A program made the position numbers and the translations under genes. Positions 22,996-29,685 of a stretch of 32,041 nucleotides of DNA are shown piece after piece. The DNA lies in assembly GCA_022705265.1 (NCBI GenBank), contig JAKJEU010000002.1:1-32041 (forward strand). The letters run 5' to 3'. The stretch comes from Pseudomonadota bacterium (GTDB lineage: Bacteria; Pseudomonadota; Alphaproteobacteria; JAKJEU01). A model generated the notes under the pieces. The model ran no database searches. It was not told where the DNA came from and saw nothing but the letters and a program-made list of their open reading frames with translations. Position 1 is the first letter of the stretch. Each line of letters opens with the position of its first letter.

Positions 22996-24390
22996 ATGAA
23001 TCAAAACATTGGAAAAATCGTTTCAATCGAAGGAAGTGGACTTGAAGTCGAATTTCAAGAAAAACTCCCAGGCGTTTATCACGCTCTTTTAACTGGGGAT
23101 AAAAAAGACTTGGTTTTAGAAGTGCAAGGGCATATCGATAATAAAACTGTTCGTGCTTTGGCTCTTGGTCCTACTCGTGGGCTTTACAGAGGCATGGAAG
23201 TAATCGATACAGGTGATATGATAAAAGTTCCTGTTGGCTCTGGGATTAAGGGAAGAATGTTCAATGTCTTTGGCGATCCTATTGACAATCTTGGCGATAT
23301 CGAGGCTGAAAAATATATGCCAATTCATAACAAAGCCTTACCTTTGAACAAAAGAGAAGTTAAAAGCGACATTTTCATAAGTGGTATTAAGGCGATTGAC
23401 TTACTTGCACCAATGGAACGCGGTGGTAAAGCTGGACTTTTTGGTGGTGCTGGCGTTGGTAAAACAGTTTTGATTACCGAAATGATTAACAACATGGTCG
23501 GTCGTTACGAAGGTGTTAGTATTTTTTGCGGTGTTGGTGAAAGATGCCGTGAAGGTGAACAACTTTACCGTGAAATGAAAGACGCAAATGTTTTGGATAA
23601 AACCGTTATGTTATTCGGTCAAATGAATGAAAGTTCAGGAGTTCGTTTCCGTGTTGCTCATGCTGCTTTAACCGTTGCCGAACATTTCAGAGACGAAAAA
23701 AAGCAAGATGTTTTATTACTTGTCGATAATATTTTCCGTTTCGTTCAAGCAGGTTCGGAAGTATCCGTTTTGATGGGGCAAATGCCTTCTCGTGTGGGAT
23801 ATCAACCATCACTTGGAACTGATATTGCTTCATTACAAGAAAGAATTTCCTCCACCGAAAGCGGTGCGATTACTTCTATCCAAGCGGTTTATGTTCCTGC
23901 TGATGACTTTACGGACCCATCTGCATCTCATACTTTTGCTCACTTATCCTCAACTATTGTGCTTTCTCGTGCAAGAGTTTCCCAAGGTTTATATCCAGCG
24001 GTGGACCCACTTGCTTCGGCTTCAAATATGTTGACCCCTTTGGTCGTTGGCGAAAGACATTATAAGGTCGCAACCGAAGTTAAGAAAACCTTGGCTGAAT
24101 ACGAAGATTTAAAAGACATTATCGCAATGCTTGGTTTTGACGAATTACCTGAAAAAGACCAACAAACCGTATTAATTGCAAGAAGATTGGAAAGATTTTT
24201 AACTCAACCATTCTTTACCACAAAACATTTCACAGGAATGGACGGTAAAGCCGTTGATTTAGAAGATACTATTTTTGGTTGCGAGGCTATTTTGTCTGGC
24301 GAATACAATAAGTTTGATGAAAACTTGTTCTATATGGCTGGAAACATGGACGAAATATTCCAAAGAATGAAACAAAAAGAGGAAGCTTAA
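22996..24390 (+). CDS. atpD: N-type ATPase beta subunit
   Basis: 464 aa with Walker A GGAGVGKT and a DELSEED-loop variant, DELPEKD. It is the first gene of an operon in beta-epsilon-Q-R-a-c-b-alpha-gamma order. Confidence 0.95.
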
Positions 24391-24395
24391 ACAAA

Positions 24396-24794
24396 GTGAA
24401 AATAAAACTTCAAACCCCTACTGGAAACGTTTTGGATTGCGAGGCTTTGTCAGTTGATTTCGAAGCCTTAGACGGACATTTCACAATATTGCCAAAACAT
24501 GCTGATTTTGTAAGCGTTATTGCAACTGGGATTATTTTAATTAAAACCAGCGACAACAAAGAAATTTATGTCGCAACAAATTCTGGGATTTTAAGCAAAA
24601 AAGGAAGTCAGGTAAGTATTTCTGTAAGAAACGCTATTTTAAACGAAGATATTGATATTTTAACCAACATCATTGAAACCGAATTTAAAAAATTTAACGA
24701 AGAGCGAAAAGAAACAAACACAGCCATGGCAAGGCTTGAAATCGGAATTACCAGAGGGTTTATGAAGCTTAACAAAGGTGAAATTAATGTCTAA
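24396..24794 (+). CDS. atpC: N-type ATPase epsilon subunit
   Basis: 132 aa with a GTG start. It has an epsilon-like N-terminal beta sandwich (LDGHFTILPKHADFVS) and sits directly after beta. Confidence 0.8.
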   Translation: MKIKLQTPTGNVLDCEALSVDFEALDGHFTILPKHADFVSVIATGIILIKTSDNKEIYVATNSGILSKKGSQVSISVRNAILNEDIDILTNIIETEFKKFNEERKETNTAMARLEIGITRGFMKLNKGEINV

Positions 24795-25143
24795 TAACGA
24801 AAAAAATCACGAAAGACGATTGATAAAAAAATTAATCGTAAAGGCAAGAAAAAGAGCCGAAAGAAAAAACAATAAAATCTTCCTTAACGCTGGTATTATG
24901 GGAGTTTTTGGTTGGCATATTTGTACTCCGGTTATTTTGGCGACTATTTTAGGGCTTTGGCTTGATAAAAAATTTGATATGAACGGCTCACTTTTTATTG
25001 CTTTTTTAATCATTGGTTTTATGGTCGGTGGATATAATTCATATCGCTGGGTTAAGGAAACTTTGAAATTCAAAATAAGACAAAAAGAAGAAGATAGTGT
25101 CATTTTACAAGATGAAAAACCAATTAAAACAGGTGAGGAATAA
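24787..25143 (+). CDS. atpQ: AtpQ (AtpI/AtpZ-like membrane protein of N-ATPase operons)
   Basis: Basic N-terminus followed by two TM helices (GIMGVFGWHICTPVILATILGLWLD ... LFIAFLIIGFMVGGYNSY). I prefer ATG 24787, preceded by AAAGGTGA, over the track's GTG 24778. Confidence 0.7.
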   Translation: MSNNEKNHERRLIKKLIVKARKRAERKNNKIFLNAGIMGVFGWHICTPVILATILGLWLDKKFDMNGSLFIAFLIIGFMVGGYNSYRWVKETLKFKIRQKEEDSVILQDEKPIKTGEE

Positions 25144-27221: not shown

Positions 27222-27225
27222 TCAA

Positions 27226-28755
27226 ATGTTAGAAGAAAAAACAAAAAAGGCTTTCGAGGCTATTAACAATGCGACAAGCAAGACAACTCAAAATGTGAAT
27301 GTTGTTGAAACTTCCGAAGTTGTGTCAGTCGGTGCTGGAATTGCTGAAATATCTGGTCTTATGAATGCAAGATTAGAAGAAATGCTTATTTTTAATGACA
27401 ATGTAACAGGAATTGTTATGTCATTAAACCGTGACAGCGTGGGTGCAGTATTTTTGGACGACCCAACCGAAATCAAATCAGGCGACAAAGTAACAAGAAC
27501 TAATCGTGTGGTTGATGTTCCTGTGGGTGAAGAACTTTTGGGTCGTGTTATAAACCCGATTGGTAAAGCTTTGGACGGACTTGGTTCTATTAACACCGCC
27601 GAAAGAAGAGGTGTTGAAAGAGAAGCATATCCAATTATGTCTCGTTCCCCAGTTGACACTCCACTTCAAACAGGTATCACAGCCGTTGACAGCTTCACTC
27701 CAATTGGAAGAGGCCAAAGAGAATTAATCGTAGGAGACAGACAAACCGGAAAAACCGCGATTGCTTTGGACACTATTATCAACCAAAAAGACAGCGGAGT
27801 AATTTCAATTTATTGTGTCATTGGGCAACGGGCTTCTGCTACTGCTAAAATCATTGCTGACCTTAAAAAACATGGTGTTATGCAAAATACGATTATCGTG
27901 GTTGCAAGCGGTGATGACCAACCTGGCATGCAATATCTTGCTCCTTATGCTGCTACTTCTATTGGTGAATATTTCATGGAAAAAGGCAAAGATGTCTTGG
28001 TCGTTTATGATGATTTGACTTGCCATGCTCGTGCATATCGTCAAATGATGTTGCTCCTTCGCCGTCCACCTGGTCGTGAAGCTTTTCCTGGCGATATTTT
28101 TTATATTCATTCAAGATTGTTGGAGCGCTCTACCCATTTAAGAGAAGAATTTGGCGGCGGTTCTTTGACTTCTTTACCAATTGTGGAAACTGAGGCTGGA
28201 AATATCTCGGCATATATTCCAACCAACATTATTTCGATTACTGATGGTCAAATTTATCTTTCCACTTCGCAATTTCAAAAAGGTATTTTGCCTGCAATTG
28301 ATACTGGTAAATCCGTTTCTCGTGTTGGTGGTGATGCTCAATTACCTGCATATTCTGCTTTGGTTGGAAGACTTAAACTCTTTTATTCTCAATTCGAAGA
28401 GCTTGAAAGCTTTGCTAAATTCGGCACTCAACTTGACAAAGAAACCGAAAGAAGACTTAACCGTGGTCGTGCAATCCGTTCGGTTATGAAACAAATTCAA
28501 TATCGTCCTATTCATGTGGTTGAACAAATCGCAATTTTGATGGCGACTAATAAGGGTTTGCTTGACAATCTTAACGACGAACAAAAGAAATTCGCAATCG
28601 AGAAAATCAGAGCTTCGGTTCGCACTGATTACCCTGAAATTGTTGATAAAATTTTGGACCGTAAAAAATTAAAAGACGACGACAAGGCAATATTGCTTGA
28701 TGGATTTAAGAAAATGCTTAAACAAGAAGGCTTGAACTTATCTTCTGAGGAATAA
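27226..28755 (+). CDS. atpA: N-type ATPase alpha subunit
   Basis: 509 aa with Walker A GDRQTGKT, plus LLLRRPPGREAFPGDIFYIHSRLLER. Confidence 0.95.
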   Translation: MLEEKTKKAFEAINNATSKTTQNVNVVETSEVVSVGAGIAEISGLMNARLEEMLIFNDNVTGIVMSLNRDSVGAVFLDDPTEIKSGDKVTRTNRVVDVPVGEELLGRVINPIGKALDGLGSINTAERRGVEREAYPIMSRSPVDTPLQTGITAVDSFTPIGRGQRELIVGDRQTGKTAIALDTIINQKDSGVISIYCVIGQRASATAKIIADLKKHGVMQNTIIVVASGDDQPGMQYLAPYAATSIGEYFMEKGKDVLVVYDDLTCHARAYRQMMLLLRRPPGREAFPGDIFYIHSRLLERSTHLREEFGGGSLTSLPIVETEAGNISAYIPTNIISITDGQIYLSTSQFQKGILPAIDTGKSVSRVGGDAQLPAYSALVGRLKLFYSQFEELESFAKFGTQLDKETERRLNRGRAIRSVMKQIQYRPIHVVEQIAILMATNKGLLDNLNDEQKKFAIEKIRASVRTDYPEIVDKILDRKKLKDDDKAILLDGFKKMLKQEGLNLSSEE

Positions 28756-28758
28756 AAA

Positions 28759-29685
28759 ATGACAATTGAGGCTTTACAAAAAAGAATAAAAACCACTAAC
28801 GAATTAAGAAACATCGTAGGCACGATGAAGTCTTTGTCGACGGCTAGTATTTTACAGTATGATGAAGCCTCAAAAGCTTTGAAAAAGTATAATGAAACCA
28901 TTATTCATGGGCTTCAAAGTGCGGTTAAAAATGGAATTTGGAATAAGCCTTATTCTTCTAAAACTCCGATTGAAAAACAAAAAATTATCGCAATTATTAT
29001 TGGTTCTGATAACGGTTTAGTGGGAAAATTTAACCGTGACATTATTTCTTGTGCCGAAAAATACTTCAAAGAAATCGGTGCGGATAAAAACAATGTTTCT
29101 TATGTCGGAATCGGTAAAAGAATTATCGGGATTTTAGAACGAAATAAATGTGAAATTGATGAAAAATATGCGGTTTCAAATTCGGTTAAAAATATATCTT
29201 TAATTGCCAATTCGGTTGTGATAAGGCTTGATGAAATTATGGCGAAAAGAAAGGCTGAAAGGGTTGTTATTTTTTATAACGAAAAGCCAAGCCGTTCTGC
29301 TCCTTTTAAAAATTCTTATAAAACTTTGCTTCCAATTGATGAGGAATTTTATCAAAATTTAAGAAAACAACCATGGAATTCAAGAGGCTTTCCTTTAATC
29401 ACAATCGAAGACAACATTTTTGTTTCAAATTTAATAAAAGAGCATATAATGATGTCACTCGTTGGTGGTATTACTGATTCCTTAAAGGCTGAACATCATA
29501 CAAGGCTTAATAATATGCAAGCTGCGGAAAAGAATATTGATGAAAATTTGGAAAAAATGAATCTTGAATATCAACAAATGAGGCAAGAAGCGATTACTTC
29601 CGAGCTTTTAGATGTTGTTAGTGGCTCTGAGGCTTTAAGAAATCGTCTTAAAAAAGAAAAAGAAGCAAGAAACAAAAAGAAATAA
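28759..29685 (+). CDS. atpG: N-type ATPase gamma subunit
   Basis: 308 aa. N-terminal helix IKTTNELRNIVGTMKSLSTASI and C-terminal helix QEAITSELLDVVSG, as in gamma subunits. Confidence 0.85.
   Translation: MTIEALQKRIKTTNELRNIVGTMKSLSTASILQYDEASKALKKYNETIIHGLQSAVKNGIWNKPYSSKTPIEKQKIIAIIIGSDNGLVGKFNRDIISCAEKYFKEIGADKNNVSYVGIGKRIIGILERNKCEIDEKYAVSNSVKNISLIANSVVIRLDEIMAKRKAERVVIFYNEKPSRSAPFKNSYKTLLPIDEEFYQNLRKQPWNSRGFPLITIEDNIFVSNLIKEHIMMSLVGGITDSLKAEHHTRLNNMQAAEKNIDENLEKMNLEYQQMRQEAITSELLDVVSGSEALRNRLKKEKEARNKKK

Follow-up and report, generated by a model that had tools for sequence, protein, structure and literature searches.

The stretch of DNA analyzed here (the window) is the 32,041 nt at positions 1-32,041 of the forward strand of contig JAKJEU010000002.1 (GCA_022705265.1), and its nine co-oriented atp genes, spanning 22996-29685 on the plus strand, almost certainly encode an N-type ATPase (N-ATPase; N1No, the "alternate F1F0 ATPase"). 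The operon is a somewhat divergent member of a known, already catalogued family. Taken as a whole, the account that we favor is that of an intact N-ATPase operon whose product would export Na+ and which has been vertically inherited within a clade of gut and rumen bacteria, and we place its probability at roughly 0.85. The initial annotation of this region had described nine tightly packed plus-strand genes in the order atpDCQRBEFAG; all nine open reading frames (ORFs) were found at those positions, and the assignments made with the NCBIfam and Pfam profile libraries bear out the order, as follows.

22996-24390, plus strand: atpD, N-type F1 beta subunit, 464 aa (TIGR03305, tree)
24396-24794, plus strand: atpC, epsilon subunit, 132 aa (TIGR03166, PF02823, tree)
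24787-25143, plus strand: atpQ, membrane protein of the AtpZ/"gene 1" family, 118 aa from the ATG (PF09527, TIGR02230)
25144-25437, plus strand: atpR, the hallmark N-ATPase subunit, 97 aa (PF12966)
25430-26119, plus strand: atpB, subunit a, 229 aa (TIGR03306, PF00119, tree)
26145-26423, plus strand: atpE, subunit c, 92 aa (TIGR03322, NF009998)
26466-27221, plus strand: atpF, long b subunit, 251 aa (TIGR03321, NF011044)
27226-28755, plus strand: atpA, N-type F1 alpha subunit, 509 aa (TIGR03324, tree)
28759-29685, plus strand: atpG, gamma subunit, 308 aa (TIGR03323, tree)

The resulting order, atpD-C-Q-R-B-E-F-A-G, is that of the N-ATPases. The successive gaps between the genes are 5, -8, 0, -8, 25, 42, 4, and 3 nt; as none exceeds 42 nt, there is no room for an additional gene inside the operon. 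A Shine-Dalgarno-like motif precedes all nine genes, and for atpQ an alternative in-frame GTG is available at 24778. Two short contigs of the NCBI assembly GCA_002068595.1 are on record with proteins identical to these, called and matched to Pfam in the same way, so that the window amounts to a more contiguous version of that metagenome-assembled genome. As delineated by Dibrova et al. in 2010, N-ATPases are recognized by the atpDCQRBEFAG order, the presence of AtpQ and of an AtpR with three transmembrane segments and two membrane Arg residues, the lack of atpH, a long AtpF with a delta-like C terminus, the grouping of every subunit apart from its F-type equivalent, a c subunit with a helix-1 Glu and an ESTxxY motif (in most, not all, members), and their occurrence as second copies (PMC2881411).

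Profile searches consistently place the subunits among the N-type proteins. In the libraries used, the N-type models are the "alternate F1F0 ATPase" profiles, and these were the top match for beta, alpha, gamma, and a. The beta, alpha, and gamma subunits scored 715.5 (TIGR03305), 717.4 (TIGR03324), and 231.4 bits (TIGR03323), as against 632.5, 621.5, and 121.9 bits with the generic atpD, atpA, and gamma models, respectively; subunit a scored 244.1 bits with TIGR03306 and also matched PF00119. For c, b, and epsilon, the alternate models (TIGR03322, 121.6 bits; TIGR03321, 190.9 bits; and TIGR03166, 103.3 bits) came within about 8 bits of the top model, and epsilon matched PF02823 as well. The models that were slightly ahead for these three subunits, namely NF009998 (123 bits), NF011044 (192.4 bits), and NF004871, also take one of the two top places for the operon of Picosynechococcus PCC 7002, whose N type is undisputed. 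The Mycoplasma-type F1-like ATPases (MSC_0618/0619 and the gliding-motility MMOB1660/1670) were not indicated, their models being matched below cut-off by both beta (424.8 against 570 and 478.7 against 850 bits) and alpha (305.4 against 520 and 444.8 against 600 bits). The genes supply every component of an F-like rotary motor, and the residues of catalysis and of the ion path are intact: both P-loops are preserved, with GGAGVGKT and the GERCREG motif readable in the beta translation, as is the essential stator Arg of subunit a (LAVRLYGN, aligned with LGLRLFGN of Escherichia coli).

Phylogenetic analysis yielded the same placement. Reference operons were labeled N or F by gene order alone, with seven of the former (Acaryochloris marina pREB4, PCC 7002 pAQ7, and plasmids of Legionella anisa, Hymenobacter, Sphingobium, Azospirillum, and Sulfitobacter) and five of the latter (E. 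coli, Fusobacterium, Paracoccus, Bacillus, and Vibrio). In neighbor-joining (distance) trees with 100 bootstraps, the F and N operons separated, the window falling among the latter, with a bootstrap of 100 for beta, alpha, a, and a 1,691-column concatenation, 99 for gamma and for b, and 93 for epsilon; for c the value was 64, from 89 columns and two F-type references. Rooting the beta tree on alpha paralogues gave the same topology, identity to the F-type counterparts was below that to the N-type ones for all subunits, and a placement of beta and c within the F-type clades was not seen in these trees. Among the reference replicons themselves, those of Fusobacterium, Paracoccus, Bacillus, and Vibrio, taken from PLSDB (NZ_CP084075.1, NZ_CP141053.1, NZ_CP093325.1, and NZ_CP050465.1), are megabase replicons filed as "plasmids" that hold a canonical F-type atp operon, i.e., they are chromosomes or chromids.

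The two membrane proteins between epsilon and a, which the initial annotation had named AtpQ and AtpR, were recovered as such by profile searches. AtpQ matched both PF09527 (48.6 bits; gathering threshold, 26.6) and TIGR02230 (55.6 bits; cut-off, 46.7), and hydropathy gives it two hydrophobic segments; no match to genuine AtpI (PF03899) was found in the operon, where AtpQ (PF09527/COG5536) stands in its place. AtpR matched PF12966 with 49.8 bits against a gathering threshold of 26, and hydropathy gives it three hydrophobic segments, with R47 in the second and R77 in the third. R47 is invariant in all 73 clade homologues, and position 77 is Arg or Lys in 72 of the 73. A structure search returned no solved structure for relatives of either protein. 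The absence of a delta gene, also part of the earlier description, holds for the operon: no ORF within it was assigned to delta (atpH), and such a gene could lie elsewhere in the genome. The b subunit, in turn, has 251 aa as against 156-168 aa for F-type reference b subunits, and its residues ~130-245 give weak matches to OSCP/delta models (PF00213, E = 0.002; NF004401, E = 5.5e-4). PF00213 is matched by 30 of 40 b subunits from the clade, with a best E value of 1e-10. The long b subunit is, as judged from these matches, a predicted b-delta fusion with a delta/OSCP-like C-terminal part.

The likely coupling ion can be addressed from the c subunit. This reads GVG-E30-GH ... I-E63-S-T-A-I-Y68 and presents a two-carboxylate, Na+-type site, E30/E63-S64-T65-x-x-Y68. 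E30 aligns with the Gln that is conserved in c subunits of Spirulina and chloroplasts, as well as with the Glu in helix 1 (GIGEGY) of Fusobacterium c, and the ESTxxY block aligns exactly with AESTGIY of the latter. In crystal structures of the Fusobacterium nucleatum c11 ring, Na+ is bound by Glu32, Glu65, Ser66, the Val63 carbonyl, and a water held by Thr67, Tyr70 stabilizes Glu65, and the enzyme is Na+-driven (PMC3692424). Within the clade of the window, E30, E63, and Y68 are invariant in 74 of 74 c subunits, every one of which has Ser or Thr at position 64. The N-type enzyme of Aphanothece halophytica is reported to be Na+-coupled in work cited in PMC5376962. Given the full two-carboxylate site (E30, E63, S64, T65, and Y68), Na+ coupling is the most likely option, and the N-ATPase is probably a functional, Na+-coupled enzyme. 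Speculatively, the all-Gly helix-1 motif might signal a ring smaller than c17, ring size being unreliable from sequence. More broadly, the N-order operons can be sorted by c motif into those with E..ESTxxY (the window, PCC 7002, and A. marina), E..ESLxxY (the L. anisa plasmid), and a third class with Q/E..ETMxxY (the Sphingobium and Azospirillum plasmids), like the H+-specific ring of Burkholderia pseudomallei.

In the mechanism that we propose, the alpha3beta3 head would hydrolyze ATP and thereby turn the gamma/epsilon shaft and the c-ring against subunit a, and rotation of the c-ring past subunit a would expel Na+. A single peripheral stalk would be formed from the long b subunit, the C-terminal part of which would replace the missing delta and hold the stator. 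AtpR might chaperone or regulate the c-ring, its two membrane Arg residues pairing with the two Glu residues of c, a pairing that was suggested for the membrane Arg of AtpR by Dibrova et al. (PMC2881411). On balance, such an enzyme would act mainly as an ATP-driven exporter. The pump direction is argued from two observations, both made in other organisms: N-ATPases in complete genomes are always second copies, and deletion of the operon in Methanosarcina acetivorans left ATP synthesis unaffected (PMC2881411).

As to its inheritance, the operon looks like vertically inherited core content of a clade of gut/rumen/digester-type Alphaproteobacteria rather than a recent transfer. A homologue search in 185,579 species genomes returned more than 545 relatives of beta, from which the 80 nearest loci were retained. 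The nearest beta homologues (65-77% identity) all come from metagenome-assembled genomes (MAGs) of uncultured gut, rumen, or fecal Alphaproteobacteria, and all 80 nearest loci, from at least 80 species, share the D-C-Q-(R)-B-E-F-A-G order. The release factor 1 (RF1) encoded in the window has the same MAGs as its nearest relatives (66-71%), followed by Rhodospirillaceae (58-63%). As RF1 and the ATPase subunits share their nearest MAGs, the host belongs in or beside this gut/rumen clade. The operon is chromosomal and lies amid housekeeping genes, with the lysC-fabK pair upstream, and in composition it resembles the other genes of the window (GC content, 0.349 versus 0.334, p = 0.36; GC content at third codon positions, 0.279 versus 0.257). 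No mobile-element genes, tRNAs, or Rfam elements were seen near it, and the whole window holds no tRNA or Rfam element. Recent lateral transfer was rejected on these grounds; the lateral transfer invoked by the initial annotation may hold for the family as a whole but is not evident in this operon.

The flanks of the related operons consist of assorted housekeeping genes (accD, a 2-hydroxyacid dehydrogenase gene, tyrS, and clpB), and a conserved partner gene beside the operon was likewise rejected, since these are unrelated housekeeping genes and none is common with the window. The only distant relative with the lysC-fabK pair (57-60% identity) is L081, a high-GC (59.5%) MAG titled "uncultured Rickettsiales", which over 5588-15065 shares this pair and the ispG-hisS-prfA-prmC run with the window at 31-60% identity. 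It has no N-ATPase after the fabK-like gene and is too remote to date any insertion. Several MAGs with titles such as Limosilactobacillus gorillae, Holdemanella biformis, uncultured Lactobacillales, and uncultured Bacteroidales carry an alphaproteobacterial N-ATPase operon or RF1 at 63-76% identity; these bins (L005, L032, L039, and L078 for the operon; L113 and L118 for RF1) are probably mislabeled or contaminated.

Several observations weigh against this account as a whole. First, seven of the nine subunits fall below the strict NCBIfam "alternate F1F0" cut-offs, by 5-30%: beta (715.5 < 752), alpha (717.4 < 750.5), gamma (231.4 < 282.35), a (244.1 < 302.1), c (121.6 < 130.85), b (190.9 < 224.7), and AtpR (38.9 < 55.5 with TIGR03165). 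Only epsilon, on its alternate F1F0 model (103.3 against 100.1), and AtpQ, on its own model TIGR02230, pass. The PCC 7002 reference operon passes eight of the nine cut-offs, all but that for b. That the N-type models are nonetheless best or joint-best suggests a divergent branch and not a different family. Second, the direction of operation is unreadable from sequence, and the argument for a pump presupposes second-copy status in this host. Third, the c-ring of B. pseudomallei was predicted to bind Na+ and was measured to be H+-specific (PMC5376962). This precedent of a failed prediction is tempered by the B. pseudomallei motif, ETMxxY, which lacks the Ser of the ESTxxY of the window.

The last of these points bears on the best surviving alternative, namely that the operon encodes an H+-coupled N-ATPase, which would use ATP to pump protons and serve pH homeostasis, the role put forward for the enzyme of B. 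pseudomallei. Its ring, which has the two Glu residues and is H+-specific despite them, is the only N-type c-ring tested biochemically (PMC5376962). Moreover, the ProAD survey, which counts 1,807 N-type ATPases in GTDB, predicts 893 of them to be of the H+ type and 914 of the Na+ type (PMC11738941), and Na+-type sites are also able to carry H+ at low Na+ (PMC2881411). However, Ser64 and Thr65 of the window correspond to the Na+ ligand and the water holder of the Fusobacterium structure, whereas the Burkholderia ring and the Sphingobium and Azospirillum operons have Thr-Met at these positions. The latter two form a separate deep branch in every tree, and the window groups with the ESTxxY operons. 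We therefore regard H+ coupling as unlikely, and Na+ coupling remains the preferred reading of the c site.

A second alternative accepts Na+ but reverses the direction: the operon would encode the main or only rotary ATPase of the host, working chiefly as a Na+-driven ATP synthase and a core enzyme of an anaerobic, host-associated clade. At least 80 species-level genomes of the clade keep the operon in one gene order, with varying housekeeping flanks (accD, tyrS, clpB, and lysC) and no signs of mobility, which is compatible with such a role. So are the identical c site in Fusobacterium, which belongs to a genuine Na+-driven ATP synthase (PMC3692424), and the precedent of an N-type enzyme as sole rotary ATPase in the Chloroflexota genus T78 (PMC11738941). 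That same survey of GTDB, which holds many of these MAGs, nevertheless singled out T78 as the one clear N-only genus; N-type enzymes typically occur beside F- or A-type ones, and the commonest combination is an H+-F with a Na+-N enzyme (PMC11738941). The second-copy rule and the M. acetivorans deletion likewise speak against a synthase.

No companion ATPase came to light: no other ATPase genes were seen in the window or in the fetched loci, which total about 2.5 Mb (gut-clade MAGs account for about 1.7 Mb) and are far too small a sample to be informative, and when the alpha, beta, and gamma proteins of F- and N-type enzymes were searched by tblastn against the other 90 fetched loci (1.0 Mb), no match resulted. 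A weak "alpha-like" match downstream of the operon in the related locus L057 proved to be the transcription terminator Rho. A literature search on the gut alphaproteobacterial orders RF32 and CAG-239 in connection with ATPase or respiration returned nothing relevant. Overall, a primary synthase appears a shade more doubtful than H+ coupling, and an ATP-driven Na+ exporter is the function that we prefer. Finally, an ordinary F-type ATP synthase with rearranged genes and a delta gene elsewhere is already effectively refuted: the generic models do score well above their own cut-offs (atpD, 632.5; atpA, 621.5), as they should for any protein of the F/N superfamily, but the N-type models outscore them for beta, alpha, and gamma (231 versus 122 for the last), AtpR is present, b has a delta-like tail, and every subunit groups with the N-order operons, apart from the five F-type references, and is less identical to its F-type than to its N-type counterparts.

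Three further features bear on the boundaries of the transcription unit.

22865-22912, plus strand: intrinsic-terminator-like hairpin with a 14-bp stem, a 16-nt loop, and U8 (read directly, RNA fold)
22934-22962, plus strand: candidate sigma-70-type promoter, TTGAAT-17-TATATT (9/12 consensus match)
29692-31068, plus strand: MATE-family efflux transporter gene, not an N-ATPase component (TIGR00797, 207 bits)

The hairpin folds with a free energy of -17.4 kcal/mol (z = -6.5), and none of 200 shuffled sequences was as stable; a simple terminator scanner missed it because its loop is longer than 8 nt. It closes off the fabK-like gene upstream, insulating the operon, in agreement with the claim that the latter has its own upstream terminator. 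The companion claim of a promoter-like region stands in part: TTGAAT-17-TATATT is present 34 nt upstream of the atpD start, but in this AT-rich region promoter-like sites are no commoner than in shuffled sequence, and it is therefore only a candidate. Another promoter-like site, at 22847-22875, scores higher; it coincides in part with the terminator stem and is likely to be spurious.

At the other end, the earlier description of a nine-gene operon is correct in gene set and order and left two matters unconsidered, the ion specificity and the MATE gene, which begins 6 nt past the gamma stop. With this short gap and no terminator-like site between the two genes, the transcript may extend to 31068, with the MATE gene cotranscribed as a putative tenth gene. 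The MATE gene has no obvious Shine-Dalgarno motif. Its linkage to atpG is not conserved in 80 related operons, among which only L048 has a downstream MATE gene, with 26% identity. The closest solved relatives of its product are DinF-BH and PfMATE, both of which are H+-coupled. A Na+ circuit common to the N-ATPase and the MATE protein was considered and is not supported, as the linkage is confined to this lineage and DinF-BH and PfMATE are the nearest proteins of known structure; no evidence of a functional tie between the two was seen. In the A. marina pREB4 N-ATPase operon, a cation:proton antiporter gene (L091, 11105-12334) sits between atpQ and atpR, and this insertion is a precedent for N-ATPase operons that carry transporter genes.

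Elsewhere in the window, a chromosomal dgkA-eptA pair lies at 1472-3470 on the minus strand, with eptA directly downstream of the diacylglycerol kinase gene. The EptA-type phosphoethanolamine-lipid A transferase scores 619.6 bits with NF028537 and is far below all MCR family cut-offs, and the pair is a potential intrinsic polymyxin-resistance determinant. EptA together with BamE (8224-8646) indicates a Gram-negative envelope with lipopolysaccharide. Neither Pfam nor NCBIfam gave a match for five ORFs of 141-171 aa: 10099-10572 on the plus strand and 12846-13319, 13331-13756, 14181-14696, and 14690-15190 on the minus strand, the last four forming a run between an M23 peptidase gene and prmC. 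A turn in the cumulative GC skew falls at ~20360-20570, in the intergenic region between the divergent rodZ (minus) and lysC (plus) genes. A replication origin at this turn, near 20.4 kb, was rejected, as the skew mirrors the orientation of the genes throughout the window and there is no enrichment of DnaA boxes.

These results confirm that N-ATPases extend into a large uncultured clade of gut-, rumen-, and digester-associated Alphaproteobacteria, in which the operon looks like stable core content and has a textbook two-carboxylate Na+ site. As most of the subunits fall just under the NCBI "alternate F1F0" thresholds, automated annotation would label such operons as ordinary F0F1 ATP synthases, and a probable Na+ pump could then be taken for the ATP synthase when the metabolism of these gut bacteria is reconstructed. 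Should the enzyme instead prove to be the sole or primary rotary ATPase of this low-GC, host-associated clade, it would break the "always the second" rule that lies behind the pump-only interpretation. The significance is modest, in that more than 1,800 N-ATPases are already catalogued and an uncultured host makes the role of AtpQ and AtpR, the direction, and the ring size no more tractable.

In comparison with known systems, the E. coli F1Fo (atpIBEFHAGDC) has homologous alpha, beta, gamma, epsilon, a, b, and c subunits with conserved P-loops and stator Arg; the operon of the window differs from it in gene order, the absence of atpH and AtpI (PF03899), the extra AtpQ and AtpR, and a b subunit of 251 rather than 156 aa, and belongs to a separate clade. 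The Na+ F-type synthases of F. nucleatum and Ilyobacter tartaricus resemble it in the c subunit: their GxGxGxG-type helix-1 motif is similar, and the ion residues of Fusobacterium c (E32/E65/S66/T67/Y70) are identical to those of the window. Yet these enzymes are ATP synthases with the F order a-c-b-delta-alpha-gamma-beta-epsilon and a short b of 163 aa and fall on the F side of the split for every subunit. The N-type enzyme of B. pseudomallei (c17, H+-specific; Schulz et al. 2017) shares the operon type and a two-carboxylate c. However, its c subunit has E61-T62-M63..Y66 in place of E63-S64-T65..Y68, and its helix-1 motif is AxGxAxAxG, in contrast to the all-Gly G20xG22G23xG25xG27xG29xG31 of the window, which is akin to that of the small c11 rings. 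The full set of likenesses is found in the N-ATPases of PCC 7002 (pAQ7), A. marina (pREB4), and A. halophytica, which have the same order, AtpQ and AtpR, no delta, a long b-delta, and a c subunit with the helix-1 Glu and ESTxxY, and the subunits of which cluster with those of the window. Identity to the N-type references is 52-62% for beta, 43-55% for alpha, and 20-30% for gamma. Whereas these references are plasmid-borne and come from marine or halotolerant organisms, the operon of the window is chromosomal, apparently vertically inherited, and found in a host-associated clade.

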